The notes under the pieces: generated by a model
The model's input: only the letters and a program-made list of their open reading frames with translations
The model's database searches: none
Told to the model about the DNA's origin: nothing
Program-made: the position numbers and the translations under genes
From: a virus
Lineage: Duplodnaviria; Heunggongvirae; Uroviricota; Caudoviricetes
DNA length: 44,909 nucleotides
Strand: one strand, 5' to 3'
IMG/VR virus record: IMGVR_UViG_3300033993_001993
Shown here: positions 5,397-42,320 of the stretch, piece after piece
Layout of the letters: every line of letters starts with the position of its first letter
How positions within the stretch are numbered: position 1 is the stretch's first letter

Positions 5397-6548
5397 TTAA
5401 GATCTAAAATTTCTTCTTTTAAATTCTTCGTTAAGGAATTTAGAAACTACACTCCCAACACTTTCCTTAATGTTTAAGTCAGGACCCTGATTATCAGAAC
5501 TTCTATCGAAACCTTTTTGACGAGCATTTCTTAATGATGCCAAACCAAACCTACTATTGTCGATTGTAAGTTGATCAAACTCATCCCCAATACCTAAAGA
5601 TCCACCAACGAAGTTTCTGTCACCACATTGTAATGCCAACATTTTGTTTTTCCAAAGGTCAGTAAGACATTCCGATGATATTGATGACGACTTAGAACAT
5701 TTATATAATAATTTAATCGCCGTTTTACACGCTCCTCTACTTGGAATAATTAACGTTCCTGGTTTAGGCCAAACTTTTGTGTTTGGTGATTTTTTTGCCA
5801 TTTCAGCTAATGCTGGATAATCTTTAGCAATATCTTTTAAGAAGAAACCTGCATTTGCTTCAGGTGAAGACGCATCTTCAGGTGCTACTCTTGTAAATCC
5901 TTGTTTTTCTAACACCTCGCTAGTTTGTTTTGCCAAATCTTGGTTAACATTCTCTAAGTTTTTACGAACAAATAAATAACCAGACCCTTTGTAATTAGGT
6001 AATACAGGTCTTCCTGAATTTGGCCAAGTTAACTCACTATATGGTACTTTTACAAATTCACCTTGATTTGCATCATCCACAAATTCATAATAATTATCTT
6101 TGTTTGACGCTAAGAATGAGTCCAAAGTTTTTCTTTGTTCTTCACTCATAGTATCTTTACCCAACTCAGATGTCTGTTGCATAAAATCACAATCTATACC
6201 CCACCCTTCGGTGTATTTTCTAGGTGACATACCAGATTTAACATTATATGTTAAAAAAGATGTTTTTGGGCTTGATGGGTCTTTTATTGCAAAAAACATA
6301 ATAATTGATCCATCAGGTTGTACTGGCGTCGATATGTAAGCCGCTTCTGTCTGACCTTTTAAACCTGGAAATTTAACTATGTCAGATGTCTCTAAACGTT
6401 TTACAACTCTATCCTTAATTTTTGCTTCAAAAGTAGGGCAGTTTAATCTACCTTTTTCTAATAGATCTCTTTGATCTTCAAAATTTAATCCTCTTACTTT
6501 TTCGTCAGCCTCTGAAATGGCTTGTCTTATCATTTTATCTATGTTCAT
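5397..6548 (-). CDS. Hypothetical protein with leader-like N-terminus (MIRQAISE)
   Basis: 383-aa ORF; leader-like IKESVGSVVSKFLNEE also near the C-terminus. Confidence 0.85.
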   Translation of the reverse strand: MNIDKMIRQAISEADEKVRGLNFEDQRDLLEKGRLNCPTFEAKIKDRVVKRLETSDIVKFPGLKGQTEAAYISTPVQPDGSIIMFFAIKDPSSPKTSFLTYNVKSGMSPRKYTEGWGIDCDFMQQTSELGKDTMSEEQRKTLDSFLASNKDNYYEFVDDANQGEFVKVPYSELTWPNSGRPVLPNYKGSGYLFVRKNLENVNQDLAKQTSEVLEKQGFTRVAPEDASSPEANAGFFLKDIAKDYPALAEMAKKSPNTKVWPKPGTLIIPSRGACKTAIKLLYKCSKSSSISSECLTDLWKNKMLALQCGDRNFVGGSLGIGDEFDQLTIDNSRFGLASLRNARQKGFDRSSDNQGPDLNIKESVGSVVSKFLNEEFKRRNFRS

Positions 6549-6650
6549 ATCTTAACTAATTAAATTTCATCGCACACTATATAAATGTGTTTATTAATGT
6601 TTCTTAAATAAATATCGGAGTTTTCGGAAAATTTTTATCCCAAAAACTAA

Positions 6651-6896
6651 TTACAATAAAGTATTACCTTTACCTCTCGTTACCTTATATAAATCTTTCC
6701 ACTTTGATTTTGGGTCTATTTGATTTGCAACACTTCTTGTTAACCCAGTTTCCCACTTAGTAACCGTAGGGTATGTTGACCCACCATCACTTGATGTCGA
6801 TGCCGCAGCGTCGTCTTGTTCACCTAACTCACCATTTTCTTCAGGTTCATTTTTGGTGTATCTCTTTAAAAGATATATTATTTCGTCTACTTCCAT
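6651..6896 (-). CDS. Hypothetical protein (81 aa)
   Basis: ORF with TATTTAT motif at 6904-6910. Confidence 0.75.
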   Translation of the reverse strand: MEVDEIIYLLKRYTKNEPEENGELGEQDDAAASTSSDGGSTYPTVTKWETGLTRSVANQIDPKSKWKDLYKVTRGKGNTLL

Positions 6897-6934
6897 TATT
6901 TTTATAAATATTCGTTGTAATTAGAAAAAAAGTG

Positions 6935-6942
6935 TATCTTTG
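6935..6942 (+). promoter_or_regulatory. Bacteroidota-type -7 box (TATCTTTG)
   Basis: Ends 17 nt upstream of ATG 6959. Confidence 0.65.
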
Positions 6943-6958
6943 TAGAAATAAAAAAATT

Positions 6959-7758: not shown

Positions 7759-8316
7759 TTAATTGTAGTTTCCGAATCTTCTGAACATATCTAACGATTC
7801 TTGTAGTTTTGATTTGAATTCAGGTAAGTCGTCTTCATCGATTTCATCATACACTTCCTCACTAAATCCTTCTCCCATTTCTTCAGAAGAATAATCTTCT
7901 AATTCATCAATATCGTATTCGTATTCATCATTATTTAATTCCATTTCACCAGCAAAATCTCTTAAAGAGTCATCCTCACTTGGTGATGGATATCTATCGT
8001 TATCAATGATTGCATCAACTTCTTCTCTATCGTTGTTAGCATCATCTAAATCCACGGTCCCATTTTCTAAGTCAGTATCACCATCAGCAATCCTATCCAA
8101 AGGAGATTCGTTGATCCCAACATTTCTATATGTCTTAACTTCACCTTTATTATTCAAGGTAATTCCGTTTTTATCGTTTGCAAGATCTTGAACATACAGA
8201 GGAGTCATATTACTTTCTTGATTATATTTTGTAACATAACCATCATAAAGATGTTTGTGTTGGTCGAGAATATTTTCTCTTTCCTCATTTGTCATTTTAA
8301 AAAAGTACGCGTTCAT
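7759..8316 (-). CDS. Acidic protein with EERxxILxQH-type leader
   Basis: MNAYFFKMTNEERENILDQH; TATTTAT at 8332-8338. Confidence 0.85.
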   Translation of the reverse strand: MNAYFFKMTNEERENILDQHKHLYDGYVTKYNQESNMTPLYVQDLANDKNGITLNNKGEVKTYRNVGINESPLDRIADGDTDLENGTVDLDDANNDREEVDAIIDNDRYPSPSEDDSLRDFAGEMELNNDEYEYDIDELEDYSSEEMGEGFSEEVYDEIDEDDLPEFKSKLQESLDMFRRFGNYN

Positions 8317-8429: not shown

Positions 8430-9050
8430 ATGGAAGTTATTATAACCAAATCTCAGTACGTTAAGTTATTAACCGAAGAGAAGAAAAATGAAATCGAAAG
8501 TACTTTTGACGACTCTAAAAGTTTTGTTAAACGAGTTGTAGGTGATATTAAAAAACAACACGGAATGGATTTTTCATTCGCATTAACGTGGGGACCTACC
8601 ATTGGTGGGTTTGTTGGTCCTATTTCGAGATACCTCGAGGGGACGTACCCAAGTTTAAGTCAATCAGATATTACGTTATTAACCTTTGGTATTATTATGA
8701 CATTTTTTTCTTCGAATAAAGAAAAAATAAACAAAGTATTAACTTTAATTAAAGAAAAAGGATTGGTTACTTTTTTTGACAGAGCTTTACGCAAATCGTT
8801 TGACCTAAAAGAATCGTTCATTGATTTTATTGAGAGTTTGAATGTAACATTCTCTAGAACTTCTAATATGTTGTCTTACACATTTTTGGTTCCGTTAGTT
8901 CCAATGTTAAAAGAGTTATCGGATATGGATTTAGATCCAAGTCAAGTGGCAATGATTGCTAAGGGTATCGCTAGTTATACCGGTACCGCAGTTAGTTCAA
9001 CAATAATATTTGAGTTAGTTAAAAAAATAATTAAAAGATTTAGATCTTAG
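8430..9050 (+). CDS. Leader-bearing hydrophobic protein (MEVIITKSQY...LLTEE)
   Basis: 206-aa ORF; TATTTAC variant at 8416-8422. Confidence 0.85.
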   Translation: MEVIITKSQYVKLLTEEKKNEIESTFDDSKSFVKRVVGDIKKQHGMDFSFALTWGPTIGGFVGPISRYLEGTYPSLSQSDITLLTFGIIMTFFSSNKEKINKVLTLIKEKGLVTFFDRALRKSFDLKESFIDFIESLNVTFSRTSNMLSYTFLVPLVPMLKELSDMDLDPSQVAMIAKGIASYTGTAVSSTIIFELVKKIIKRFRS

Positions 9051-9691: not shown

Positions 9692-10096
9692 ATGGAATTA
9701 TTGAACACTCACCCAATCAAAAAATCAGATTTGGGTTTTCACGGGAATTTATTTGGTGGAAAATTATTAGCTTGGATTGATGCCGCAGCGGCAGGATATT
9801 CAATGCAGCTATGTGATACCCCTCGTATGGTTACGGTATCGATCGATAAGTGTTTCTTTGAGAAACCAGCAAAGGAAGGTCAATTACTTAAGATCTATGG
9901 TAAACCTTCAAAGTTGGGGACAACATCTGTTACATTATATATGGAGGCAAGAGCTCATAATGTATATACCGGTAAACAAGGTATTGTATTAAAAACAAAC
10001 ATTAAATTCGTTTCAATAGATGAGGATGGTAATCCAATTCCAATTGGGGAGAAGGGTAGAATAAGATTGACAAATATTATTGAGGAAGAAAATTAA
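9692..10096 (+). CDS. Acyl-CoA thioesterase (HotDog fold, YciA-like)
   Basis: DLGFHGNLFGGKLLAWIDAAA...VTVSID...FVSIDEDGNP. Confidence 0.9.
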   Translation: MELLNTHPIKKSDLGFHGNLFGGKLLAWIDAAAAGYSMQLCDTPRMVTVSIDKCFFEKPAKEGQLLKIYGKPSKLGTTSVTLYMEARAHNVYTGKQGIVLKTNIKFVSIDEDGNPIPIGEKGRIRLTNIIEEEN

Positions 10097-10707
10097 TTTG
10101 TTTTTGGGGGTAACGGGGGATCAAGTAAGAATTTCTCGTTAAGCCAATGTCTTAATTCATTTTCAACAAAGTATTCAGGAACTTCTTGATCGTCAGGCAT
10201 TTCTGACGCTAATTCGGAGATATATCTTGCGAATTTAACTTTAAATCTGTCATCCATTAATGTTAATAGACCATCTGATATAAAGAATATTTTTGTTAAC
10301 GGGTCACTAATCCCTAATTCACCTTCAGCTAAATCAAAAGATCTCATAATAGTTTTACCCCACCACGTTTTATAGTTTGTGGTTTCTTCTAAAGTAGGTC
10401 TTAATATTTTGTTTGCTGCTCTAATAATTGATCCTGTGAATCCAGCAATTGATAATTGAGGTAAGAACCAAGGTAGTAATCTTAATATTGCCTTATACCC
10501 ACCTTCACCAATATGTTTATATAATCTTTTAGTGGTTGCCGTTTCGACTAACGCTCTTAATTGCCCAAATGTTATTTTACCTTGAGCACTACAAAACTTT
10601 TCCGCATCACAGATATTCTTAACTGCCGACTCAGAAGGTTTGATCTCGGTCTCGTTAATGTATCGCTTAAGATTTTTTCTTACTATTCTTTCAATTAATA
10701 CTGACAT
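10093..10707 (-). CDS. Leader-bearing hypothetical protein (RIVRKNLKRYINE)
   Basis: 204-aa ORF coupled to the upstream gene. Confidence 0.85.
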   Translation of the reverse strand: MSVLIERIVRKNLKRYINETEIKPSESAVKNICDAEKFCSAQGKITFGQLRALVETATTKRLYKHIGEGGYKAILRLLPWFLPQLSIAGFTGSIIRAANKILRPTLEETTNYKTWWGKTIMRSFDLAEGELGISDPLTKIFFISDGLLTLMDDRFKVKFARYISELASEMPDDQEVPEYFVENELRHWLNEKFLLDPPLPPKTN

Positions 10708-10710: not shown

Positions 10711-11298
10711 TTACCAAGTTTTACAAGCCCAATATCTTGGTTTCCATCTAGGTCCTGGGTTAGCACAATTGTGTCTTGCTCTAAATGATTTTCTTCTTTT
10801 TGGGTTATTTTTCTTTATAACCATTCTTTTACCTTTAGCGGATTTCCCACCAAAACCAAAGTTTACCTTAACTACCTTTCCTTTATCGTTTTTAACGTAT
10901 ACCTTGAACTTTTTAATGTCCCCTTGCATAATCTTACCAAGTTGGACTTTTCTCCCTTGATATTCACCCTCAGATAGGTATTCGGTATCTTCCATTGGAA
11001 CCTCCAAATAGATTCGTTCCCCACTTTCTAATATAATAGATTTTCCAAGATCGGATTCAATTAATTTAATGTCATTTTCATTAATGTCTAACTTACCTTT
11101 AATAAAAAGATCTCTCACTTCATTTATTAAATTAAGATGTGATTTTGAATATGTTTTAAGGTTTGTTTCAGATAAAGGTATTTTTTTATCAAGATGATAT
11201 TTAAGAATATCGGATACTTTAGTATCCTCAATCAACTTCATTGAGTGATTAATATGTTCTTTAAGTGCCCTTCTAACTATGTTTTCTAAAATTCTCAT
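10711..11298 (-). CDS. Leader-bearing protein with basic C-terminal RRKSFRARH...YWACKTW domain
   Basis: MRILENIVRRALKE leader; I recall the C-terminal motif from other large viruses but cannot name the family. Confidence 0.85.
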   Translation of the reverse strand: MRILENIVRRALKEHINHSMKLIEDTKVSDILKYHLDKKIPLSETNLKTYSKSHLNLINEVRDLFIKGKLDINENDIKLIESDLGKSIILESGERIYLEVPMEDTEYLSEGEYQGRKVQLGKIMQGDIKKFKVYVKNDKGKVVKVNFGFGGKSAKGKRMVIKKNNPKRRKSFRARHNCANPGPRWKPRYWACKTW

Positions 11299-11352: not shown

Positions 11353-11886
11353 ATGAAAACAATTAGATTAACCGAGTCAGATTTAGAAAGAATGATTAAA
11401 TCTATTTTATCAGAACAATCGTCTGAAGATGAAAAAACTAAAAAGAAAGATAAAAAAGCTCGTTGCGTTCCTGAAAATGTAATTTCGTTAGATGAGATTG
11501 CCGGTAGAGCGGATGAGTTCTCAAGATATACTCCAGGTATAACAAAAAGATTATCAGGTGTTAATTCTATGGTCGATACTTTAGGTATTTTGAATAACCT
11601 AAGATTGTTTAAAGATATTAAGGATGGTGGTTCTCATTTGGCTTACGAAATGATGAATAACCTTAACAGGTTTCGTAATAAAAATTATTATGATGAGACA
11701 ACAGGCGATTGTAACAAAGCGATGGATAAGATCATCGAATTATATAAGGAAAGTGAGCACGGTACTGAGTTAGTTAAAGACATTGAAAAAGTGTTGAATC
11801 TACAAACTAAAGAAGATGAGTATACTCCATCCCCAAGAGCAAAGGAGTATTTAAAACAATCACTTAACCTTGTAAAAGGATTATAA
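11353..11886 (+). CDS. Leader-bearing hypothetical protein (MKTIRLTESDLERMIKSILSEQ)
   Basis: 177-aa ORF with the canonical leader. Confidence 0.88.
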   Translation: MKTIRLTESDLERMIKSILSEQSSEDEKTKKKDKKARCVPENVISLDEIAGRADEFSRYTPGITKRLSGVNSMVDTLGILNNLRLFKDIKDGGSHLAYEMMNNLNRFRNKNYYDETTGDCNKAMDKIIELYKESEHGTELVKDIEKVLNLQTKEDEYTPSPRAKEYLKQSLNLVKGL

Positions 11887-16640: not shown

Positions 16641-17204
16641 TTACTTACCCATTCTATTATGTCTCATTGATGTTGATTTTAACGCCAAGGCAATTCCTGC
16701 GATAATTACCAAAAGTGAAACAGGTCCACCGTAATTACCAATCCCTGCGTTCTGCATAATATCGTGAACATTTGTTAATATTTCACTTTCAGACCATCCA
16801 GCTCCGTTTGATACAAGACCTAAAAGTCCAGAAGCGGAAATACCAAGACCACTACCAATACCTAATCTCTCAAAGAAACTTCTTAATCGATCACCAATAC
16901 CCTCAGTGATAATTCCTTCTTCTAACATATCTTCTTCACCATTGTCAACCTTTTCCATTTCTCTTTCAATGTTAACGTTAGATATTCTTCTTTTTAAATT
17001 CATTTTGTCCTCATCGGATAAATCAGATAACACTTCATTCTTAAAGAAATCAGCAACACCTTTTACAGCATCGTCAAGTTTATCCCCAAAACCTCCGAAC
17101 ATACCCTCTTCAATTTCATCATTATACATTTCATTTTGAGCTTCAACCACAATTCTTTTTATAAGTGATCTAAATTCTGTCTCGGTTAATCTAATTTTTT
17201 TCAT
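16641..17204 (-). CDS. Leader-bearing protein with Gly-rich hydrophobic C-terminus
   Basis: MKKIRLTETEFRSLIKRIVVEA; internal MLEEGIITEG. Confidence 0.88.
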   Translation of the reverse strand: MKKIRLTETEFRSLIKRIVVEAQNEMYNDEIEEGMFGGFGDKLDDAVKGVADFFKNEVLSDLSDEDKMNLKRRISNVNIEREMEKVDNGEEDMLEEGIITEGIGDRLRSFFERLGIGSGLGISASGLLGLVSNGAGWSESEILTNVHDIMQNAGIGNYGGPVSLLVIIAGIALALKSTSMRHNRMGK

Positions 17205-17224: not shown

Positions 17225-18058
17225 TTATTTAGTTACTTGTTGTCGGAACCCTTGTTTAAGTCCTTGGACGCCTCCTCTTACTGAAGATGCTACCTTACCA
17301 ACTAAAGTGTCAGCTGACATACCTAAAGCTTGTCTAATCTCTTTTTTAAGTTCTCTCGTTTTTGCATCACCCTTTCTACGATCTAAATTATCCAACGCGG
17401 CCTCTCTTTGATCTGCCGGTGTATTAAGGACGTATTGACCTGAAGGTGATTTTGACCAAGCAATAACCTCACTTGATTTTACAGGGTCTAAAGTATCTAT
17501 CTTAGGCATCAATTTTTTAGCATCACCAATTGGGTCAGCAAGTTTTGGTACACTACCACCACCACCTGATGCCGCCAATGTCTTAGATTGGTCAGCAGCA
17601 AGTTGGCCAGTAACTGCCGTTGCTGGTTTGGTTGCTAATTTCTCACTTGAGAATGGTAATTTTTTTATTGCCTCTAATGCTTTTCCTGTTGGTTCGGTCC
17701 AAGATAAAAATTTACCAGCATTTTTGTATGCCAACGCTTTAGGACTCTTAGGTTCAAACTTTAATTTGAAAAAGTATTTATCTCCTTCTTTTTTATAGTC
17801 GTAATCGTAATCACTATAAGAACTATATGTTGTTTCTCCAGTTGGTGCGGTTGCCTCAGGTGTAGTTGCCGCAGGTGCTGCCGGTGTAGTTGCCGCAGGT
17901 GCTGCCGGTGTAGTTGCCGCAGGTGCTGCCGGTGTAGTTGCCGCAGGTGCTGCCGGTGCCGCTTGTTCAGAAATATAACTTCTTTTGGTAGCTTCTTTGT
18001 GCATCCCTAAGATTCTTTCTTTTTCGGATTCACTTATTATAAATAGATTTTTTTTCAT
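17225..18058 (-). CDS. Leader-bearing protein with Pro/Ala/Thr linker
   Basis: MKKNLFIISESEKERILGMHKEA...ISEQ; TATTTAT at 18078-18084. Confidence 0.88.
   Translation of the reverse strand: MKKNLFIISESEKERILGMHKEATKRSYISEQAAPAAPAATTPAAPAATTPAAPAATTPAAPAATTPEATAPTGETTYSSYSDYDYDYKKEGDKYFFKLKFEPKSPKALAYKNAGKFLSWTEPTGKALEAIKKLPFSSEKLATKPATAVTGQLAADQSKTLAASGGGGSVPKLADPIGDAKKLMPKIDTLDPVKSSEVIAWSKSPSGQYVLNTPADQREAALDNLDRRKGDAKTRELKKEIRQALGMSADTLVGKVASSVRGGVQGLKQGFRQQVTK
17859..17954. repeat. Coding tandem repeat, 4 x 24 bp
   Basis: Four exact copies of GGTGTAGTTGCCGCAGGTGCTGCC, encoding AAPAATTP. Confidence 0.97.
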
Positions 18059-24434: not shown

Positions 24435-24458
24435 ATATAAATAAATACTATGGAAAAC

Positions 24459-28108: not shown

Positions 28109-28588
28109 ATGGAAAAACCGTTTACTATATATCTTGACATTGATGGTGTACTTGTTAGTTACCTTAAACTAAAGGACCGTGATCCTGATGGTAAACATTC
28201 TTTCATCCCTAAATCTGTTGAAGTCCTTAATAGTATCATCACAATGTTTGATGCTCATATATGTATTGTATCTACTTGGGGTCGCTCTTATTGGAACGGA
28301 TCTAATGATGGTGAGGAGTTTAAGGATTTCTTGATTAGTAGAGGTATCATTGTGAATGGTCTTACCTTTGGTGATCCCGATGATCGTGCTGGGTTTGTTA
28401 TTAAACGTAAATCTGAGGGTTACACGAAGTTTCTTATTATTGATGACGAATCTCTTGAATATTATGAGAACGTGTCTGAGATCGGATATAATCGTATCTT
28501 ATTTGTTAACTCTTGGAGATGCTTGGATGACTATGATTTGGTTGGGGTTGCTAGAAACTATGAGAGATTGATCTCCGATGAGTATTAA
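28109..28588 (+). CDS. HAD-superfamily phosphatase (Swiss-Army-Knife RNA-repair-like HAD type)
   Basis: IYLDIDGVL (motif I), IVSTW (II), FLIIDD (IV); TATCTTTG at 28097-28104. Confidence 0.8.
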   Translation: MEKPFTIYLDIDGVLVSYLKLKDRDPDGKHSFIPKSVEVLNSIITMFDAHICIVSTWGRSYWNGSNDGEEFKDFLISRGIIVNGLTFGDPDDRAGFVIKRKSEGYTKFLIIDDESLEYYENVSEIGYNRILFVNSWRCLDDYDLVGVARNYERLISDEY

Positions 28589-29040
28589 TTAATCATCCCT
28601 ATATAATCATCCTTTGAGAAATGATTTACCCAATCATTAACTATAATACCGTACTTATTTTTAAACCATTTGTCTAAAAAATCTCTTGTCTTCATATTTG
28701 TATCCGTTTCTAAAAAAACCTTTAATGGTCTAAAAATTAAATCATAATTAACGTAAATCGTATTTTCATTCCATATAGTTCTTATAACAAATACGTTTTC
28801 CCCATTCTCATTTTTATATAACCTCATTAGTGGTTCTTGTTCGCTTACAACTCCTTTTAGATCTAAAAACAACTTCATAAAACCTAACGCGTTATGTATG
28901 TCAGTAACTTTTTTAAGATTATCATCACCACCTACATATGGCGAAACATTAAACCAACCATCATTCTTGATGTTGTGAATTAATTTGGTCTTTAACGTCT
29001 CTTCCTTTAGTACTCTTCTTATGTGTTCCTGTAGGTTCAT
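28585..29040 (-). CDS. Leader-bearing protein (MNLQEHIRRVLKEE)
   Basis: Carries the G...YVGG..NL module. Confidence 0.88.
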   Translation of the reverse strand: MNLQEHIRRVLKEETLKTKLIHNIKNDGWFNVSPYVGGDDNLKKVTDIHNALGFMKLFLDLKGVVSEQEPLMRLYKNENGENVFVIRTIWNENTIYVNYDLIFRPLKVFLETDTNMKTRDFLDKWFKNKYGIIVNDWVNHFSKDDYIGMIN

Positions 29041-29399
29041 ATTATATAATTATCAACTTCTTCACCTTTCATTTTTATTGAATCAATAACTTGTTGGTAT
29101 TTTTCTTCACTCCATTCATTTTGTCTATCTTGAACATATGGTATGCAATCACTAAAAGGTCTTTCTATTGCTTTTAATCTCCACGGATTTAATTCTAATT
29201 CTTCAGGTGTTAAATTCTTTAATGTAATAACACTACAATCCCCTTCCCAATTTGGTTTTGCAATTCCTCCTTGTCCATCACCTGGTTCTGTAACGAATAT
29301 AATTTCATCATCCACAAGTTTTTGTATGTCAAAAGTTAAACGAGAATTATCCATTCCCATCATTTCTCTAATTCTTTGTATGTTTTCTTGTAGGTTCAT
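29037..29399 (-). CDS. Leader-bearing protein (MNLQENIQRIREMM)
   Basis: Start moved to 29399; TATTTAT at 29404-29410. Confidence 0.85.
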   Translation of the reverse strand: MNLQENIQRIREMMGMDNSRLTFDIQKLVDDEIIFVTEPGDGQGGIAKPNWEGDCSVITLKNLTPEELELNPWRLKAIERPFSDCIPYVQDRQNEWSEEKYQQVIDSIKMKGEEVDNYII

Positions 29400-30928: not shown

Positions 30929-30949
30929 ATCTATTTGTTTTAATTTTTT

Positions 30950-32055: not shown

Positions 32056-32667
32056 TTACTTATAGAATATCTTTGTCTTGATTGATTCTAAACCTGTACC
32101 TTTCGCCTGTGTCCATTCAGGGTATTTAGTTTGGAACTCACCTGCAGTTCCGATGAAATAATAATCCTCACCATTTTTACAATACTTGAAAGATCTACCT
32201 GTCTGTAATTGACTTGTTTTATCTGTGTCACATATATGGTTTGATTTGGTTTCGGTGTTCGTTGGCGCAACCTTTGTTTTACATAATGGAGCTAAAGCTT
32301 TTGTTAGACCGCCGTATTGTTGGAAATACTTATCTTTAGATGCGTTTACCGTAAATTTACCCTCGGCGCAGTTGTAAGTAACTTTACCCGCGTACTCAAA
32401 TTTTAACGCATCTTTTGGTCCATAACCTAGTTTAACCCCAGTTCTACTATCAACAAATTGATACTTAGTGTTAGCGACTAACACATCACCGTTTTTAACA
32501 AACTTAGTTCCTTTAAAAATCTTTAACTCAGGTTTAGCCTCACTAGTTGCATTTTCAAAAGTTGCGTCATTTTTGACCGTATAACCCATTTCTTCTTGTT
32601 CTGAGATCAATGGTTTGGCATCGCCCATTGTTGATTCTAATAATTGTTTAAATCTATTTAATTCCAT
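32056..32667 (-). CDS. Leader-bearing protein (MELNRFKQLLESTMGDAKPLISEQ)
   Basis: TATTTAT at 32686-32692. Confidence 0.85.
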   Translation of the reverse strand: MELNRFKQLLESTMGDAKPLISEQEEMGYTVKNDATFENATSEAKPELKIFKGTKFVKNGDVLVANTKYQFVDSRTGVKLGYGPKDALKFEYAGKVTYNCAEGKFTVNASKDKYFQQYGGLTKALAPLCKTKVAPTNTETKSNHICDTDKTSQLQTGRSFKYCKNGEDYYFIGTAGEFQTKYPEWTQAKGTGLESIKTKIFYK

Positions 32668-32738: not shown

Positions 32739-33194
32739 TTATATGAATAATATTCTAGTTGCGTGACTATGATACTTTTCGTTTATTAAATCCAATAGAG
32801 GTGATTCCCAATTTTTAACCGATCCGAAGTAATCCTCAATTTCGCTAGCCAATTCTTCATATAAAATTATTGTATTGAAGTTTGGGTTTCTAAGGTCGGG
32901 TGTGTCATAACATACTTCAGGTAAGTCATCAATAAATTCTTCAGGGTAATCCCCATACACATCCCATTTATCTCCATCAACCAACTTGAAGGTGTAATCG
33001 TTATACTCACTTGTTTGTTTTACAAATCCTATTGCATATGGGTCACAACATACTCCCATACCACAATCATATTCTGCCCAATCATAATATAAGTCGTCTA
33101 ATCCATCAACCGCCATATCAATTAGATTTCTTAACGCAGGTTTAATGTTTGTCTCTTCCCTTAATACTTTCTTTATTTGTTCCTTAAGATTCAT
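32739..33194 (-). CDS. Leader-bearing acidic protein (MNLKEQIKKVLREE)
   Basis: TATTTAT at 33200-33206. Confidence 0.88.
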   Translation of the reverse strand: MNLKEQIKKVLREETNIKPALRNLIDMAVDGLDDLYYDWAEYDCGMGVCCDPYAIGFVKQTSEYNDYTFKLVDGDKWDVYGDYPEEFIDDLPEVCYDTPDLRNPNFNTIILYEELASEIEDYFGSVKNWESPLLDLINEKYHSHATRILFI

Positions 33195-33247
33195 ATCTAA
33201 TAAATATACTAAAATAAAAATCCCCCACCATTGTGAAGGATTTTTAT

Positions 33248-34104: not shown

Positions 34105-35751
34105 TCACCAATTAATCATACCTTTAACTACCATATAAATTTCTTTATCAGTGAAGTTTGATAGTCTTTCTATAAATCCATTTATTTGCATACCATACTT
34201 ACCATACTCATTTACTTCTACCGTAACCTTATCTCCCGACAAATAAAATGAATCGGCACTTTTATCTTTATCTAATTCTATTGAAAATTCTATCGTTACA
34301 TCTCCTTTTGTCTGATGATATCCTTCCTCATTTATAAAGTCCCTAATGTATCTCTCTAATACTTCTCTTGGTAGTTCACCTGTCTTTGATATGATTTGTT
34401 GAAGAGATAGTCCTGTGTCTTGCATTACCTGAAATAAACCATTCTCTTCTATTGGTCTAAGTAATCCATACTTTTTGTTTTCCGATTCATTTAAATCGTT
34501 AATATCAGGATTAATTTCATTGAAGTAATCAAATATCATTCCTCCGTATTCCATCTTCATAAAATCATCAATCTCCTCATATGTGTCCTCATACTTTGGG
34601 TCGTATTCATTATATGGATAAAAATGTGGAATAACCCAACTTATTATGTCGGAAGCATAATCATACTCATCCGAATAATCGTTCGGGTCTGTTTCACTCA
34701 TTTCCTTTTTAATCAATCGTATGATGTTCTCCTCGTTAAATTCAGATGTTCTTCTTCTAATGTCTTTTCGATTAAAAAGTTCATTGATGTTTTGGGTAAA
34801 CAAACTATCATACCTATCTTTGATCTTATCGTAATAATATTTTGACAGGAAGTCATAAATTTCATCATAAGGTACTTTGTTTGATCTATTATCGGATAAA
34901 TCCATATAGTAAGCATCTATAAGGTGAGTTATAACTCCGTCGTTGAAATCATTAAAATTAAATTCAACATTATTAAGAATCCTTTCTAAAGAAAGACTGG
35001 TAACGATATTTAAATACTCATAGAATTCTTTGTCCATCAGGACCATATCAATTCTTCTACGAAAGAATTTTGATTCATTAATTGATTTTTTCTTATCATA
35101 CCACCACTGATGATCGTTATAATTATTTATGGTTGAGTTACCAGTTGTTACGTAATCAAATTGGTCTCCAAAATAATTTGGTATTTCTTTCTTTATTTTA
35201 TTGAAGACTGAAAATAGTTTATTAGAATCATTTTGATTAAAACTATTCTCGAATAGTCCTGTAATATGACATTCTTTACCACCATCAACAATATCAACAG
35301 CGACTCCTTTAAAATTTTCAGGTAGATCATAATCTTCCAACAACGATTCAATAAAAGTTGTAACGGCCTTTTCCAATGGAGCTCTTTTTTTAATTTTTTG
35401 TGTTTCTTCTTTTAAAACTTTTTTAATATGTTCTTTAAGGTAAATGTTTTCTTTCCCACAATCTTTTGTGGTGTTGCTATAGATGTCGACAGCAGTTTCA
35501 GTATAATCATATATGGTATGCCAAACCTCATCCATTACGTCATCATACATTTTCTGAATCCCTTGAGTAACGGGCCAAAGTTTTGTTCCTCGACCACCAA
35601 TAAATGTTATAGTAACACTTGGTGATTTAAATGGAGTTCCTCCCAAGGTATCAAATCTTTCATTTGGATCTTTAACCTCAATATCACATATTACGTGTTT
35701 GTATTCAGGTAAAATAAAATCCTGTATTATTTTATTAAGTAATTTTTTCAT
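34105..35751 (-). CDS. Multi-module protein with several internal leader-like junctions
   Basis: 548 aa; internal YLKEHIKKVLKEE, SINES, NINEL, DLNES. Confidence 0.88.
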   Translation of the reverse strand: MKKLLNKIIQDFILPEYKHVICDIEVKDPNERFDTLGGTPFKSPSVTITFIGGRGTKLWPVTQGIQKMYDDVMDEVWHTIYDYTETAVDIYSNTTKDCGKENIYLKEHIKKVLKEETQKIKKRAPLEKAVTTFIESLLEDYDLPENFKGVAVDIVDGGKECHITGLFENSFNQNDSNKLFSVFNKIKKEIPNYFGDQFDYVTTGNSTINNYNDHQWWYDKKKSINESKFFRRRIDMVLMDKEFYEYLNIVTSLSLERILNNVEFNFNDFNDGVITHLIDAYYMDLSDNRSNKVPYDEIYDFLSKYYYDKIKDRYDSLFTQNINELFNRKDIRRRTSEFNEENIIRLIKKEMSETDPNDYSDEYDYASDIISWVIPHFYPYNEYDPKYEDTYEEIDDFMKMEYGGMIFDYFNEINPDINDLNESENKKYGLLRPIEENGLFQVMQDTGLSLQQIISKTGELPREVLERYIRDFINEEGYHQTKGDVTIEFSIELDKDKSADSFYLSGDKVTVEVNEYGKYGMQINGFIERLSNFTDKEIYMVVKGMINW

Positions 35752-36197
35752 TTGACATAAAAATAACTATCCACATTTATATCTTTATATTTGTCGTCAC
35801 CACGTTCCATTTTTAAACTATCAGGTAAATCATTATATATGTCAGAAAAATTATTCACTAACTCTTTATTAATAAAAAATGGGTCATCAAATACTTTATC
35901 ATAATCCAAAGCAGAGAAAGGGTAAGGTTTTCCGTGTCCTGAGTCATAAATAAATTCGGGAGATCTTAAATATACTTTATTTGTCTCAAGTCCATAATAT
36001 TCTTTAACTTTTGGGAAATCTACAAGTAAGTTCACATAAATAGTATATGTATAATCATTTAATTCGTTAGCCAATTTCCATCCAACAATGAATGGATATT
36101 TTTTGGATAGTAATTTAACCGCAAGATTAATACCTTTAGTAATGTTTTTACTATTGTTAACCTCCTCTTTTAATATATGTCTAATTAATTCTTTCAT
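35748..36197 (-). CDS. Leader-bearing protein (MKELIRHILKEE)
   Basis: Translationally coupled tandem. Confidence 0.88.
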   Translation of the reverse strand: MKELIRHILKEEVNNSKNITKGINLAVKLLSKKYPFIVGWKLANELNDYTYTIYVNLLVDFPKVKEYYGLETNKVYLRSPEFIYDSGHGKPYPFSALDYDKVFDDPFFINKELVNNFSDIYNDLPDSLKMERGDDKYKDINVDSYFYVK

Positions 36198-37042
36198 TAC
36201 ATTACTTTATTCAAAAACATTTTAATTGTTCTAACTATTTTTTGTCTATACGGATCGTTTTCGTTAAAGTTTTCAAACGGTCTCTCGATTATATTATTTT
36301 CGATTAACATATAAAGTATCTCATTTATCTGTTTTCTTTTTGTGTCGAAACTTGTGATAACGTAGGTTTGTCCGTTAACGTCGAATTTAACTAACCTCAT
36401 CGGTAAATTATCTTCACCCCAACCCAAATCTTTATCCTCAACTTCATATCTTCTCATAAGAAAATTGATTACGTTTTTCTGTGTGTCCTCAACACTTTCG
36501 TAAAGAGATGTTTTTTTATATAACTTACTTCTTAATTGTAACATTTCATCAAATGGATCTGTAAATGGTACTATAGGGAAATCAATTTGATCAGCATTTT
36601 CACCATTTATTTCCTTAATAGTAATATAATTAGGTGTGTTGAACCTAATTTTTTCGTAATTTTTATCTAAAGAAACATTATATGGACTATCTTGTCCTTC
36701 AATAATAAAACGTTTAACCAAGTTATCTTCCTCCTCAGTTAATTCACTATTGTCATAAGTAACATTAACTATTGGCCAAAAATTAGTATTCCACTTGTTT
36801 GCCTTCATTCCAATGATATCAAAGTTGAACGGGAAATCGATTCCATCATAACCAAAGGTGACTTTACCTTTAAGAGATTCAATTCTATCAATTATTGCCT
36901 TGTTATCTTTGAATACTCTTTTAAGGTTATTTAGTCCACCGACAAGTTCAGCGGCACTAAAAATACCTTCATTTTGAATTACTTTTAATAACTTAAGTTT
37001 ATTCGATTGTTCTTTTAAGATATGTCTAATTAGTTCTCTCAC
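36197..37042 (-). CDS. Leader-bearing two-module protein (GTG start, RELIRHILKEQ)
   Basis: G..AAELVGG..NL module; internal SLYES. Confidence 0.88.
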   Translation of the reverse strand: MRELIRHILKEQSNKLKLLKVIQNEGIFSAAELVGGLNNLKRVFKDNKAIIDRIESLKGKVTFGYDGIDFPFNFDIIGMKANKWNTNFWPIVNVTYDNSELTEEEDNLVKRFIIEGQDSPYNVSLDKNYEKIRFNTPNYITIKEINGENADQIDFPIVPFTDPFDEMLQLRSKLYKKTSLYESVEDTQKNVINFLMRRYEVEDKDLGWGEDNLPMRLVKFDVNGQTYVITSFDTKRKQINEILYMLIENNIIERPFENFNENDPYRQKIVRTIKMFLNKVM

Positions 37043-37545
37043 AGGTACTCTTGTAAATCGTATTTATCTATTATTTGGTTGTATATTTGTGTTCTTGCCC
37101 TTTTACCTAATGTATTTCTTTTAGTAATAAATGAATAACCAAATCCATAATCACCTGATTGACCAACAACTCTCCATATTTTTTGACCTGAGTAAAGATC
37201 CCTTGGTATCAATTGAGCATTAAACTTATAAGTATGACCATTAGTTGTCCAACTAAACTCACCTAAATCTTTCATATCTTGACCTGAAAACCTAATTGAT
37301 GGTAAATTTAACTTTTGAACAATTAGATCATCAATATATAAATTGGGATCTATAGTTAATCTTATCGGTCGGAATCCCGTTTCTTCGTAGTATTTCATTA
37401 TATCACCATTATATAAGATCTTAATTAAATTATCGGCACCACCAATATATTCTATAGCACCTGCAAGACCTTCATCATCAATCAATTGTTTAACTTGATC
37501 CTTGACTATACTTTCATTTAATATTTTTCTTATTAGTTCTCTCAT
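37039..37545 (-). CDS. Leader-bearing protein (MRELIRKILNES)
   Basis: G...EYIGG..NL module. Confidence 0.88.
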   Translation of the reverse strand: MRELIRKILNESIVKDQVKQLIDDEGLAGAIEYIGGADNLIKILYNGDIMKYYEETGFRPIRLTIDPNLYIDDLIVQKLNLPSIRFSGQDMKDLGEFSWTTNGHTYKFNAQLIPRDLYSGQKIWRVVGQSGDYGFGYSFITKRNTLGKRARTQIYNQIIDKYDLQEYL

Positions 37546-38183
37546 TGTCCTCTTAATCTTTCCATTTCATCACCGCGAAGTTTTTCTAAATAAGTTTTTT
37601 CAATCCAACCTGGTTCTTCATTTTCATATTTTAATATATCATCTTTTTTAAAAAGTGTGGTTTTAAGAATATATTGTATCATATCCTCATCACTCACATC
37701 TTCAGGTTTTGTTACTGGTGGTACGCAAGTTTCAGCGTCTCTACCAGTAACATCAAATTCATCAATATAGATATCATTTCTACCCATAAACTTTTGAATT
37801 TCACCTAAATAAGTATCGTCAAACCATTCTTCAAAAAGGTATTTTAAATAACTTGCCCTTACAGGAATATCTAACGATAACTCTTCAAATACATTTTTTG
37901 GAACTGTTAGGTAACCTCGCTCAAGATCTCTTTCTTCGGTTTTTCTTTTATCATCATAAACACTATAATCAACATTAAAATATAAAGTAATATGTAATAT
38001 TTCTTTTCCGTGATTACAAAATTCAAAACTATGTGTTGATTCCCACGATTTGTTGTGGTACATTTGAGCACCATTAAAATAATCATTTAACCATCTATAA
38101 ACAAGTTGTTCTACCTTTGGTGTAGGTTTAGAATATTTTCGATTAACTTCTTCTTTTAATATATGTCTGATGAGTTGTTTCAT
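37542..38183 (-). CDS. Leader-bearing protein (MKQLIRHILKEE)
   Basis: First gene of a five-gene coupled run; TATTTAT at 38185-38195. Confidence 0.88.
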   Translation of the reverse strand: MKQLIRHILKEEVNRKYSKPTPKVEQLVYRWLNDYFNGAQMYHNKSWESTHSFEFCNHGKEILHITLYFNVDYSVYDDKRKTEERDLERGYLTVPKNVFEELSLDIPVRASYLKYLFEEWFDDTYLGEIQKFMGRNDIYIDEFDVTGRDAETCVPPVTKPEDVSDEDMIQYILKTTLFKKDDILKYENEEPGWIEKTYLEKLRGDEMERLRGQ

Positions 38184-38239
38184 TATAAATAAATATCCTT
38201 AAAGATAGTTATGTGTTGAATATTTTGTATCTTTATAAT

Positions 38240-38516: not shown

Positions 38517-40058
38517 TTATCTGTTGATTTTATAAGGTTTTGATTTGATTTTTGATTTGGTAATTCTAACCGATTCGTTAACATCAATCTCATACTCAGG
38601 TTCATATCTTTCGTCACCAGCTTTTGCAATCTTTTCTTTAAGAACTCTTGCAAACTCACGTTGGATCATCTTCGTAAACTTAACATATGCCGAATCTTCA
38701 GCATTTGCATCGTAACTATATTTTCCTTTTGGTGGTCTTTTTCCACGACCAAAGTAATTCAATGCCGATATGTTTGTAATACATTTGTGTCCACCACTAT
38801 TAGCATTTATTAAATCCCAAGCGCTAACTTGTATAGAATCCATTAAGTCCATTTCTTTTTCGGATAATTCCTTGAATGGTGTATCCATTGCTTTTTTGAT
38901 AACCTCTAAAGATTTTTCACTTGTTTTTGATCCATCGAATTTATCACCATAAAGTGCCATAAAATCTTTGAATGTAAATCCAACTGACTCTCCTCCGAAA
39001 TCTTTTCCTGATTCAGATACCCACTTTATTGTTGATAATGGAATCATTTTTTCTCTTAATTGAGATTCCCATTTACCTAAGACCTCATCTTTAACCTCAC
39101 CTAAGTTAACACCTTTAAGTGCTCTTTCTTTCTTAAATGGATTACAAGATGCCTGAACCATTCCCATTGGCCAAGCAATTACCAAGAAGTCAGCTTCAGG
39201 ATTATTTCTAAATGGAGTAAATCGATCATATGATCCAGGTCTCATCATATTACCACCACCATATTGAACGATTACTTTATCTTGAAGATCGACGTTTGGA
39301 TTCATTTTCTGAGACCTAACATAATCTTCTTTGTTTTTTTCTAAGTTCTCAATACTAGCATACCCTTTTGTTTTCATCTGATCTTTAATGTTTAATAACA
39401 TACTCATTAAAGATGGTTTAGCATTCATAACAATATCTCTTAAGAAATTAGGTTTGTTTTTAAATGCTAAAAGAAGTTTGTTTGTAATCAAACCTAATAG
39501 TTTTTTGTTTTGACCTACTGATTTTTCTCTATCGAACTTATACAAATAATTCATTACCTGTTCTGGTGTGATATCATTCTTTGCGTAGTCAGCCGAATCC
39601 ACCATTGAAATTAACTCAATATCATCTTTGGTGAAGATATCCTTTGGTGAAATTGTTTGAGAGATCGTCTCAACGTTTGATCTTGATGGTTTAAAGTTTG
39701 TTGAGGTTCCTTTTTCAACACCCGCTTGAGTATCGTGGTGATCTGTATGAATAACAAACATTGGTTTTCCGTGAGCAAAATCAACAAGTACTGGCATTAT
39801 ATCACCTGAAGCATCTTGTTTCTTAATCGCAAACTCTTTGTCCCCATATTGGATTATCTCAGCATCAACAACTTTGATCCCGTGTTGTTCCAAATAGTTT
39901 TTCATCGCTAAAGCCGTAGTTACTCCATCCAAATCTTGGTGAAAGTAAATTTTAGCCATTGGGTATCTCTTTGCTAATTCACGTATGTTTCTTATACCAC
40001 TTTCAGTTAAAATACCTTTAACCTCTTCCTGTAATACTTTTTTAATTAAACTTTTCAT
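38517..40058 (-). CDS. DHH-family phosphoesterase-like protein with N-terminal leader
   Basis: MKSLIKKVLQEE...ILTES leader; FHQDLDG, VLVDF, HTDHH motifs; TATTTAT at 40064-40070. Confidence 0.78.
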   Translation of the reverse strand: MKSLIKKVLQEEVKGILTESGIRNIRELAKRYPMAKIYFHQDLDGVTTALAMKNYLEQHGIKVVDAEIIQYGDKEFAIKKQDASGDIMPVLVDFAHGKPMFVIHTDHHDTQAGVEKGTSTNFKPSRSNVETISQTISPKDIFTKDDIELISMVDSADYAKNDITPEQVMNYLYKFDREKSVGQNKKLLGLITNKLLLAFKNKPNFLRDIVMNAKPSLMSMLLNIKDQMKTKGYASIENLEKNKEDYVRSQKMNPNVDLQDKVIVQYGGGNMMRPGSYDRFTPFRNNPEADFLVIAWPMGMVQASCNPFKKERALKGVNLGEVKDEVLGKWESQLREKMIPLSTIKWVSESGKDFGGESVGFTFKDFMALYGDKFDGSKTSEKSLEVIKKAMDTPFKELSEKEMDLMDSIQVSAWDLINANSGGHKCITNISALNYFGRGKRPPKGKYSYDANAEDSAYVKFTKMIQREFARVLKEKIAKAGDERYEPEYEIDVNESVRITKSKIKSKPYKINR

Positions 40059-40082
40059 CACATATAAATACTTTAATAAAAG

Positions 40083-40111
40083 AAAAATCCCCACAATTAT
40101 GTAGGGATTTT
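40083..40111 (-). terminator. Intrinsic terminator
   Basis: AAAAATCCCCAC-AATTAT-GTAGGGATTTT. Confidence 0.75.
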
Positions 40112-40138
40112 ATAGTTTTGTGTTGTACGAAAATTATA

Positions 40139-40690
40139 TTATTCCGCAGTTTCAGATTGAGGTTCTAAATTTTCTACCATTTCTAACATCTGAACATCTA
40201 AGTTTAACTTCACCTCATCACTTAATAATACTCCTCCTGTGTCAAGAGTCGCGTTCCAAGTAAGATCATAATCTGAACGATTAATTACTCCGCTAATTTC
40301 AAATCCGTGTTTTGTGTTACCCCAAGGATCCGTATTTTTACCATTGTATTCGATGTCCAACTCAATTTCTTTTGTTGTATCTTTGATTGTCATTTCACCT
40401 TTCATCTTTCCATTGTCAAGATTAACGTAAGTTGATTCAAAATACATTTTAGGGAACCTCTCCGTGTTGAAGAAATCTTCATTGTTAAGGTGTTTATCTC
40501 TATCTGTGTTACCAGTAGAAATTGATTTAACTTCAGCCTCAAATCTAACCTCAGCATCTGACATATCATCCATAGTGTATTTCATTCCACCTGAATAATC
40601 AGTTAATGTTCCTTTAACATTTGATACCATCAAGTGTTTAATTTTAAATCCCAAGTCAGAGTGAGATGGGTCAATTACTAATTGTTTCAT
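40139..40690 (-). CDS. YceI-family (polyisoprenoid-binding) protein
   Basis: IDPSHSDLGFKIKHLMVSNVKG...SISTGNTDRDKHL...FF..ERFP...DPWGNTKHGFEISGVINRSDY. Confidence 0.92.
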   Translation of the reverse strand: MKQLVIDPSHSDLGFKIKHLMVSNVKGTLTDYSGGMKYTMDDMSDAEVRFEAEVKSISTGNTDRDKHLNNEDFFNTERFPKMYFESTYVNLDNGKMKGEMTIKDTTKEIELDIEYNGKNTDPWGNTKHGFEISGVINRSDYDLTWNATLDTGGVLLSDEVKLNLDVQMLEMVENLEPQSETAE

Positions 40691-40773
40691 TTTTATATTT
40701 ATTTTGGTTTATTTTCTTACCAAAACATAATCCTTTTATCGGGACTTGTAAATTAAAAATGTCTTGATTTATG

Positions 40774-41412
40774 TTAAGATTTTAAGTTAAACCTAGTTGC
40801 GTAATATGTAGCGGTATCACTATAGTAGTCCTGTAAAAGTGGATATTCATTAATCACATCGTCTATGTTAGAGTACAAACGCTCTGACTCCCAATACGTT
40901 TCTTTCTCTTCTAAAAAATCGTAATATTTTTCCACAGCTTCACCAACATTTTCCTCTTTACCGTTAACGGATGCTCTTAATGGTTTAAATATATTTTTTA
41001 TTGAGTAATTATCAAATTCCCAATCAGTGTTAAATCCTTCAGAAACCCCATAAATCTTAACCTCACTATATTTGTCGGGATAATGAAAAGTTATAACGGA
41101 AATATTATTTAATACATTTTGTATTTTTTCGGTTACCTCTTCACTCAAATATAACCCATTATCAATGTCTTCGTTATGAATCATAGGTTTTAATTTTTGA
41201 TTTATATAATCCCCAAATTCATCCAACACACCTTCAAGTTTATAAAATAATATTGGTCTAAAATATGGCACATCGTTTGGATTTTGAGCCCTAAAATAAA
41301 CATATTCATTTTTTTCGGACACTTTTACTGGTGTGAGTATCATCCCATCAACATCAATGGTGCCACCTTCAAACTTTTTTAATAAACTTAATATTTTTTT
41401 ATCGTTCATCAT
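40774..41412 (-). CDS. Hypothetical protein (212 aa)
   Basis: TATGTTTG at 41414-41421, inside the lysozyme 3' end. Confidence 0.8.
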   Translation of the reverse strand: MMNDKKILSLLKKFEGGTIDVDGMILTPVKVSEKNEYVYFRAQNPNDVPYFRPILFYKLEGVLDEFGDYINQKLKPMIHNEDIDNGLYLSEEVTEKIQNVLNNISVITFHYPDKYSEVKIYGVSEGFNTDWEFDNYSIKNIFKPLRASVNGKEENVGEAVEKYYDFLEEKETYWESERLYSNIDDVINEYPLLQDYYSDTATYYATRFNLKS

Positions 41413-42320
41413 ACAAACATATTATATTCATTATTCCTTCTCACCTCAAGGCCAGGGAATTTATCAAACATATGTGAACTTGTCTGAAGGATCAATTCTT
41501 TGGCTCCTTCTAAATCACCTCTTTTAACCGCTTGTATGAAATCACTTTTCCTAATTCCACTACCCATATTGTATGCCATTGACACCATCGCATCATACAT
41601 ACCTTGCGTTATTTTTGTTTTAATACCTTTTTTCTCCCAATCATCTAAAATTTTATTTATGATACCTTCAGCTTCAATGATATCATTTTTAAGTAATGTT
41701 TCAGCATTTTTTTTGGTTATTGCAGTTTGACCTGGTACGATATCATTGTAGTTAGGTAAGAATTCATAACCCTCATCTTCACCTGGAAATATTGCGTGAC
41801 CATATCCTATTGTATATGCTCCGTCACCAATGTCGTATGCTGTTAAAATCGGTTCGCCTTTATGTCTAACAGACCCTTCCTCTCTTTTTAAATGGTTAAA
41901 GATCCCTTCAGAAGATTTTCGAATCCTTGGGATCTCCATAGATTTAAAAATCTTCTTCTCTGTTTTAACAACATTCTGTAATGGTGTTTCTAAGTAATTG
42001 TTGATTTGGTTTAACGATAATAACCCTAAGAAAGAATATAGAACATATTTTAATATTCTTTTTTTTAAATCACTTGGTAGGTTTTTAATCTTTTCTTTTA
42101 AGTTGGATAGATATTCTTTTGCGTCTTCTTTGGTCTTAACCCATAGTTTTGAAAGGTCTAACTCATTTTTAACTTCAGTGAAATCCCACTCCATATCGGG
42201 TTGTCTTTCTTCATCTTCAGTAAGGATGGAAAGTTTAAATACCATCTCCTCAAGTACTTGATTATAATTTAATCGAGATTGTATGATCTTATATTGTTGC
42301 TCAGTTATTGATAATTTCAT
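41409..42320 (-). CDS. GH24 phage-type lysozyme with leader and N-terminal extension
   Basis: MKLSITEQQY leader; HLKREEG...AYDIGDGAYTIGYGH...YDAMVSMAYNMG...GLEVRRNNE; TATTTAT at 42325-42331. Confidence 0.88.
   Translation of the reverse strand: MKLSITEQQYKIIQSRLNYNQVLEEMVFKLSILTEDEERQPDMEWDFTEVKNELDLSKLWVKTKEDAKEYLSNLKEKIKNLPSDLKKRILKYVLYSFLGLLSLNQINNYLETPLQNVVKTEKKIFKSMEIPRIRKSSEGIFNHLKREEGSVRHKGEPILTAYDIGDGAYTIGYGHAIFPGEDEGYEFLPNYNDIVPGQTAITKKNAETLLKNDIIEAEGIINKILDDWEKKGIKTKITQGMYDAMVSMAYNMGSGIRKSDFIQAVKRGDLEGAKELILQTSSHMFDKFPGLEVRRNNEYNMFV

Follow-up and report, generated by a model that had tools for sequence, protein, structure and literature searches.

Recurring short leaders on unrelated proteins of an uncultured lake-water jumbo phage: a candidate capsid-targeting propeptide system

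We analysed a stretch of 44,909 nucleotides (nt), hereafter the window (IMG/VR record IMGVR_UViG_3300033993_001993), whose source is an uncultured, T4-like jumbo phage of lake water. The DNA is AT-rich, with a GC content of ∼32%, and past a block of tRNA genes it carries ∼67 open reading frames (ORFs), with the minus strand predominating. Twenty-five of these ORFs are headed by one of five classes of short leader, or tag, and it is this family of tagged proteins, a candidate for a T4-like capsid-targeting system, that we describe here.

Five classes of leader on dissimilar proteins

The T1-short class reads MKIIITESQY, and T1-long, of 22 residues, MKKIIRLTESDLxRIVKRVIxE. Class T2 is MxELIRHILKEE, with a variant, T2b, of the form MNLQEHIRRVLKEE; class T3 is SEEKxRILxxH...Y(I/L)xEQ and class T4 is RFKxLLESxxGDxKPLISEQ. 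A sixth class, ExIxRIKxLMxL, occurs in relatives. The tagged ORFs are given below by class, with their lengths in amino acids (aa) and leaders, followed by one protein with an internal leader and by an example of the upstream motif TATTTAT.

8430..9050, plus strand, T1-short, 206 aa, MEVIITKSQY, a variant with K for E; next L-T-E at residues 14–16
19345..19914, minus strand, T1-short, 189 aa, MKIVISESQY; TATTTAT 5 nt upstream
22445..23074, minus strand, T1-short, 209 aa, MKYIITESQYQSIKES
23229..23558, minus strand, T1-short, 109 aa, MKLIITEDQY
23958..24434, minus strand, T1-short, 158 aa, MKIIITESQL; TATTTAT 6 nt upstream
41409..42320, minus strand, T1-short, 303 aa, double leader MKLSITEQQY...ILTED, then a hydrophobic stretch and a Phage_lysozyme domain (residues 159–298)
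11353..11886, plus strand, T1-long, 177 aa, MKTIRLTESDLERMIKSILSE
16641..17204, minus strand, T1-long, 187 aa, MKKIRLTETEFRSLIKRIVVE
21310..21663, minus strand, T1-long, 117 aa, MKKIIKLTESELINVVKMVIE
24513..24740, minus strand, T1-long, 75 aa, MKKVIRLTERDLENIVKRTINE; first row of the T1-long profile (A2)
10093..10707, minus strand, T2-like, 204 aa, MSVLIERIVRKNLKRYINE
10711..11298, minus strand, T2-like, 195 aa, MRILENIVRRALKE
23566..23946, minus strand, T2, 126 aa, MEQLIKRIIRES; TATTTAT 4 nt upstream
35748..36197, minus strand, T2, 149 aa, MKELIRHILKEE; last gene in a run of four overlapping T2 genes
36197..37042, minus strand, T2, 281 aa, MRELIRHILKEQ
37039..37545, minus strand, T2, 168 aa, MRELIRKILNES
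37542..38183, minus strand, T2, 213 aa, MKQLIRHILKEE; TATTTAT 5 nt upstream
38517..40058, minus strand, T2, 513 aa, MKSLIKKVLQEEVKGILTES, then a DHH/DHHA1 phosphoesterase body
28585..29040, minus strand, T2b, 151 aa, MNLQEHIRRVLKEE
29037..29399, minus strand, T2b, ∼120 aa, MNLQENIQRIREMMG; 29399 is the true start of the ORF at 29037–29423, its ATG 4 nt after TATTTAT
32739..33194, minus strand, T2b, 151 aa, MNLKEQIKKVLREE
7759..8316, minus strand, T3, 185 aa, ...MTNEERENILDQH
17225..18058, minus strand, T3, 277 aa, ...ISESEKERILGMHKEATKRSYISEQ
20212..20385, minus strand, T3+T4 tandem leader, 57 aa, with overlapping ORFs to 20813
32056..32667, minus strand, T4 class, 203 aa, MELNRFKQLLESTMGDAKPLISEQ
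34105..35751, minus strand, multi-module protein, 548 aa, with a complete internal T2b leader (IYLKEHIKKVLKEET, residues 103–117, nt 35401–35445)
24441..24447, minus strand, example of the late-type upstream motif TATTTAT; further copies at 38189–38195 and 40064–40070

The window copy at 20212..20385 looks truncated or frameshifted, because its orthologue has 201 aa in G001, a 291,867-bp IMG/VR contig rated 99% complete that serves below as the principal relative.

We compared N-termini as ungapped 10-mers within residues 2–17, counting a pair as strong when its best BLOSUM62 score was ≥ 26. Among 52 window proteins there were 45 strong pairs, against 1–2 for internal control segments, and the same test in G001 gave 400, against 33–47 in internal controls. 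Strict leader motifs were found almost only at protein residues 3–9. When the tagged proteins were aligned with one another by blastp, matches were either of leader length or weak, the bodies being dissimilar. The tagged proteins are soluble; a transmembrane segment was found in 1 of the 25, compared with 9 of the 42 untagged proteins.

These counts bear out an earlier note on this DNA, which had described some 25–30 dissimilar ORFs with a few recurring leaders: all 23 of the start coordinates that it listed are those of ORFs with the N-termini it quoted, and our 25 add the ORF at 29037–29399 and recognize the one at 20385 as a T3+T4 tandem. Other parts of that description need amendment. The ORF at 8430, assigned there to a type with IITE, has IITK. 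Nearly all leaders were said to end in I/L-x-E; this stands in that 24 of the 25 tagged proteins contain [IL]-x-E within their first 30 residues, compared with 16 of 42 (38%) untagged ones (Fisher p = 1.4e-6), and falls short for T3, which ends further downstream in Y-I/L-S/V-E-Q. The bodies were described as mostly acidic, and this does not distinguish them, the median isoelectric point (pI) being 6.6 for tagged and 5.5 for untagged proteins.

At conserved tag residues the synonymous codons vary (L is encoded by TTA, CTT, CTA or CTC, T by ACT, ACA, ACC or ACG, and S by TCA, TCC or TCT). Judged by this codon usage, selection on the tags therefore acts at the level of the peptide and not of DNA or RNA, and an explanation by nucleotide-level conservation or by a recombination site is rejected. 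In 13 orthologues of the 281-aa protein at 36197–37042 the first eleven residues of the leader, M-x-E-LIRHILKE, are nearly invariant and the bodies are ∼40% identical; for 37542..38183, every one of the ∼20 distinct orthologues displayed carries a leader. Both Glu 9 and Glu 22 of the T1-long tag are invariant in 159 of 159 copies, and across the copies from the window and related loci conservation stops abruptly after E22, the residues beyond being unrelated. The 19 orthologues of the DHH protein at 38517–40058 bear T2, T1-short or minimal leaders, and in all 19 of them L-x-E-(S/G), with an invariant Glu (E19), directly precedes the conserved body GIRxI.

In AlphaFold2 models, the predicted local distance difference test score (pLDDT) was below 50 at tag residues 1–9 and at linker residues 177–184 of the 281-aa protein, and at tag residues 1–22 of a second tagged protein. 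The tag thus lies outside the folds predicted by these models. The low-scoring linker is the conserved [LM]-x-E-S between the two domains of the 281-aa protein, for which a fold search gave no significant match in the PDB.

To gauge its breadth, the T1-long tag was made into a profile of 30 columns from 22 copies and scored against 1.84 billion representative proteins. It matched 8,386 protein clusters at E ≤ 0.001 and 591 at E ≤ 1e-10; among the best 150 matches, 144 had the tag at the N-terminus and 15 had an internal copy. Ten tag-bearing clusters that we inspected were all metagenomic and named only ‘hypothetical protein’. In cellular genomes the tag is nearly absent: a scan with a strict pattern over 185,579 prokaryote species, one genome for each, detected it at five loci only, in three metagenome-assembled genomes; four of these loci lie on contigs shorter than 7 kb and the fifth is terminal on a 72-kb contig. 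The profile search had to be exhaustive, for a word-indexed protein search with the leader region returned close orthologues only. Tblastn of the tagged proteins and of 25–26-residue leaders against the phage collection gave no match. We found no published description of these tags, a full-text search for the leader strings having returned noise.

A late-type motif, the head module of relatives and internal tags

Of the 25 tagged starts, 16 have an exact TATTTAT in the preceding 45 nt, in many cases just 4–6 nt before the ATG, and many tagged genes form units of their own, in which a terminator-like hairpin is followed by TATTTAT and, 4–6 nt on, by the ATG. Among genes that head a unit, the motif was present within 40 nt upstream of 10 of 13 tagged and 8 of 29 untagged genes in the window (Fisher p = 0.006), 26 of 29 and 54 of 153 in G001 (p = 4e-8), and 16 of 19 and 47 of 151 in a further relative, G003 (p = 1e-5), against a background of ∼2%. 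It also stands upstream of the genes for tail sheath, tail tube, adaptor, scaffold and protease in G001, and of those for sheath, tube and portal in Flavobacterium phage vB_FspM_immuto (Immuto; 160 kb), the closest cultured phage by capsid protein. TAnnTTTG, an element of Bacteroidota host type, belongs to another set of genes and hardly ever occurs on tagged ones. Because TATTTAT is common to the tagged genes and to structural genes of relatives, we infer that the tagged genes belong to a late, structural class. The frequent position of TATTTAT(A/T) 4–6 nt before the ATG in the window, G001 and Immuto would imply leaderless or near-leaderless late mRNAs.

We used an alignment of one tagged protein to find relatives in IMG/VR. 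Synteny links the window to the 200–250 kb region of G001, at protein identities of 35–64%. The head module of G001 is of T4 type, comprising Portal_T4, Peptidase_S77, a presumed scaffold and Gp23, and within it, on the opposite strand, lies a gene for ribosomal protein S21. The lineage is therefore placed among the Flavobacteriia-infecting ‘bS21 phages’ of Chen et al. (2022; PMC9723584), who propose that bS21 gives preference to late phage transcripts; its near-complete members among our relatives measure 270–290 kb. In G001, at 149774–150948, two T2-tagged genes directly adjoin the major capsid gene, and one of them, strongly basic (pI 9.8) and preceded by the late motif, recalls the T4 internal proteins.

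Peptidase_S77, the family of the phage T4 prohead protease gp21, is encoded by all three near-complete relatives and by 7 of 10 related contigs overall, and its gene sits in a portal–protease–scaffold–Gp23 module. Between the portal and protease genes lies a protein that occupies the place of the T4 core genes 67/68. In G001 this protein ranks first of 205 in the density of [IL]-x-E, with 4.1 per 100 aa (mean 1.4, standard deviation 0.8), and Ser follows half of these sites, as it does at tag junctions; its G003 equivalent ranks second, and its Immuto counterpart, gp073, has 4.9 per 100 aa. We take this density as a hint, independent of the tags, to the specificity of the S77 protease. A predicted complex of the G001 protease and residues 1–45 of a T1-long protein spoke neither for nor against such a match.

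Modules that stand behind a leader in one phage sit inside longer proteins of another. The body of the protein at 22445–23074, for example, forms the second of the modules in a 313-aa protein of G001, in which SQISES precedes it, and the 548-aa protein at 34105..35751 has, besides its internal leader, the junctions SINES (around residue 222) and DLNES (around 419). We found [ILVM]-x-E-[ST] within 20 residues upstream of 29% of 241 module junctions, a set that takes in some truncated ORFs at locus ends, compared with 8% at random positions. Some metagenome proteins carry a second, internal T1-long tag that lacks Met, and gene-calling fusion errors therefore cannot explain all internal tags.

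The nature of some bodies can be glimpsed. The protein at 38517–40058 has intact DHH motifs (DxD, HTDHHD) and an intact DHHA1 motif (GGH), catalytic motifs that are invariant in 13 orthologues, and its structure model matches structures of RecJ, NrnA, PggH, GdpP and pAp-phosphatase. It is possibly a nuclease or a signalling-nucleotide phosphodiesterase.

Other genes of the window

221–3654, minus strand, array of 14 tRNA genes (Phe, Trp, Arg x3, His, Ile, Asn, Tyr, Val, Lys, Pro, Gln, Thr) at the window start
13243–15471, minus strand, 742-aa protein combining a signal peptide and a PKD-like domain with a C-terminal CHU_C domain of type IX secretion
33376–33981, minus strand, T5orf172/MUG113 (GIY-YIG-like) gene

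Few window ORFs are recognizable by Pfam, most having no match. Those recognized encode FKBP, thioesterase, YceI, HAD and T5orf172 proteins and two GT2 glycosyltransferases, together with the PKD/CHU_C protein, the lysozyme-domain protein and a weak DHH match. The CHU_C protein is 60% identical to a G001 protein and looks like a surface cargo gene of host type that the phage carries. The T5orf172/MUG113 gene is 92–95% identical across related contigs, far above its neighbours (only 35–70%), which suggests a mobile, homing-type gene in recent spread. Just upstream of several genes (∼29823–29845, 30207–30230, 33207–33225 and 30290–31050) we noticed tRNA-like 3′ halves (GGTTCGAATCCTGTCCTGACTAC), which ARAGORN did not call as tRNAs.

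The window DNA is present in 20 lake-water metagenome runs, all of them DNA; no RNA run was among those listed. Megablast and blastn of the window against the phage collection gave no high-identity match, the sole DNA match being the CHU_C gene, at 70% to an uncultured 635-kb phage. One exact 39-mer taken from the window was absent from the set viral_contigs.

Proposed capsid targeting and its alternatives

The capsid-targeting sequence (CTS) of the phage T4 internal proteins was reportedly described by Mullaney & Black in 1996, the T4 gp21 consensus is said to have been given as (L/I)-x-E by Black, Showe and Steven in 1994, and polymorphic T-even internal-protein loci were reportedly treated by Repoila et al. 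in 1994. The T4 CTS is a 10-residue leader sufficient for loading into the prohead core, and its residues 8 and 10 govern processing; the CTS of internal proteins IPI–III and the short propeptides of Alt (7 residues) and gp24 are removed by gp21, and T-even relatives carry varied CTS-bearing proteins (PMC9026906, PMC3012670). The leaders described here resemble the T4 CTS in being short N-terminal peptides on unrelated proteins with diverse, fast-evolving bodies, in their hydrophobic-x-Glu end, in their late-looking genes and, in relatives, in the company of a gp21-family protease and a T4-type head module. Unlike it, they have no evident sequence similarity to the T4 10-mer, fall into five classes of 7–35 residues, occur on dozens of genes per genome and in thousands of metagenome families, and recur internally at module junctions; their bodies are not basic, and their function is predicted from sequence. 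The internal-protein loci of T2, T4 and T6, which encode varied basic proteins with CTS-like leaders (cited in PMC9026906), likewise combine one leader with exchangeable bodies in hypervariable loci of presumed arms-race function between phage and host. There the proteins are few, small and basic, whereas here regions of 40–80 kb are filled with tagged genes, including enzymes of > 500 aa.

A second comparison is with the ejection or inner-body proteins of phiKZ-like phages (phiKZ, 201phi2-1 and SPN3US; PMC5694885, PMC10052503), many of which are head-internal and cut after Glu by a related protease; all characterized proteases of the gp21 family cut after Glu (PMC5694885). Extra cleavage sites also occur inside their propeptides, and paralogues with identical N-termini and divergent remainders are found, such as SPN3US gp53 and gp54, which share an identical processed 15-residue N-terminus (PMC5694885). 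However, the phiKZ-like motif is A/S/G-x-E and the propeptides are mostly > 100 residues long (PMC5694885), they belong to another phage lineage and head architecture, and processing there is proved by mass spectrometry, compared with sequence evidence here. With sites of the form I/L/V-x-E and tags of 7–35 residues, our system falls outside the phiKZ-like processed class.

On this capsid-targeting reading, many soluble, unrelated proteins would be made late in infection, each with a strand/amphipathic-helix tag of 7–35 residues belonging to one of the five classes. The tag would bind the prohead core, and the protein would be enclosed while the shell forms. The gp21-type (Peptidase_S77) protease would then cut after the Glu of [I/L]-x-E, both within and at the end of the tag, and would also cut longer ‘beads-on-a-string’ proteins at the [I/L]-x-E-S junctions that separate their modules. 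The freed cargo, including the DHH/DHHA1 phosphoesterase and the lysozyme-domain protein, would stay in the head and pass into the host together with the DNA.

The earlier note had proposed capsid targeting, and the predictions that this makes at the sequence level came out as expected where we tested them, in that the tags are modular, selected as peptides, ended by [IL]-x-E, carried by genes of late class and placed outside folds, with S77 encoded in relatives; the acidic bodies failed. Several points count against the proposal. In this AT-rich proteome [IL]-x-E occurs in 30% of random internal 30-residue windows, and because it is so common the motif alone is weak evidence. A late promoter is compatible with any late function, and the protease and head genes are known from relatives, not from the genome of the window itself. 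There is no enrichment of [IL]-x-E in the protein presumed to be the G001 scaffold. In Immuto the protease and the late motif are accompanied by just one or two weak tags, so a phage can have this protease without the tag family. The hydrophobic segment of the lysozyme protein at 41409–42320 is also compatible with a role in lysis, and the tagged bodies lack the basic character of T4 internal proteins. The implied load is large, with at least 48 tagged genes in G001, some encoding > 1,000 aa, compared with the handful of T4 internal proteins. Core binding, cleavage, packaging and ejection are all steps that we infer from sequence. On balance we lean modestly towards the view that the leaders form an expanded, multi-class, T4-like capsid-targeting propeptide system with protease-released modules in a Flavobacteriia-infecting jumbo phage.

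The tag might instead stay uncut and serve as a docking helix that gathers many late proteins at a different common partner; this could be a chaperone, a hub of assembly or of the virion surface, an export route or a membrane site. Nothing would then be loaded into the head. A conserved peptide of a strand plus an amphipathic helix, exposed outside the folds and carried by late genes, would suit such docking; the internal copies in multi-module proteins could be repeated binding sites, and a hydrophobic segment occurs in one tagged protein, the lysozyme. We think this unlikely, since it leaves unexplained both the invariant Glu after I/L-x at the exact tag–body boundary across swapped leaders and the [IL]-x-E-S of the portal-adjacent core protein; moreover, no candidate hub was identified, and the tags are hydrophilic and resemble no known secretion signal. 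It is improbable that the tag is the remnant of one ancestral N-terminal domain in fast-evolving paralogues, kept for folding or oligomerization and not for targeting. Tandem runs of tagged genes (35748–38183) do suggest duplication, and some T1 and T2 proteins have a second small motif, xxGxxxAxELVGGxxNL, after the leader, but the bodies belong to unrelated folds and families (the DHH enzyme, the lysozyme and a novel alpha/beta two-domain protein), show no blastp similarity past the tag, and when orthologous may carry tags of different classes. Nor does a remnant domain agree with a tag that has low pLDDT, is not packed against the fold and ceases to be conserved sharply after E22.

Two further explanations fare worse. 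Leaderless or near-leaderless late mRNAs, with TATTTAT 4–6 nt before many ATGs and no room for a leader, could place a translation-initiation constraint on the first codons, perhaps involving the phage bS21 that relatives encode in the head module and that has been proposed to favour late transcripts (PMC9723584). The freedom of synonymous codons at conserved residues, the span of conservation over 22–35 residues, its internal recurrence without a start codon, and the many late genes with the same promoter and no tag make such a constraint very improbable. We assign the least probability of all to the tag being recognized by a modifying enzyme, as are the leaders of ribosomally synthesized and post-translationally modified peptides. 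One leader on many unrelated proteins does follow the logic of leader-guided maturases; yet no Radical_SAM domain was found in G001, G002, G003 or G005 by a search in which all 14 control genomes were positive, no candidate enzyme lies next to the tagged window genes, and the cargo consists of large folded enzymes.

If the tags are capsid-targeting leaders, they would provide a list, read from sequence, of the proteins that abundant uncultured lake phages carry into their hosts. These proteins, from families almost all unannotated, would act before phage gene expression and would hence be prime candidates for counter-defence. The abundance of shuffled ‘beads-on-a-string’ proteins in these genomes would be accounted for by the [I/L]-x-E-S junctions, and the tags would serve, just as they are, as address labels with which to bring foreign proteins into phage heads. 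A more far-reaching proposal, which we hold tentatively and would sooner doubt than believe, is that an abundant lineage of freshwater T4-like jumbo phages packs a large, sequence-predictable ‘injected proteome’, with dozens of effectors per virion, some of them polyproteins, directed by interchangeable tag classes and set free where the head protease cuts at [I/L]-x-E-S junctions. Under this proposal the class of a tag might determine how many copies of a protein are loaded or where they lie in the prohead core. Were this so, the DHH/DHHA1 phosphoesterase could destroy signalling nucleotides on entry, and ejected anti-host proteins, in > 8,000 protein families, could be listed from their sequences.

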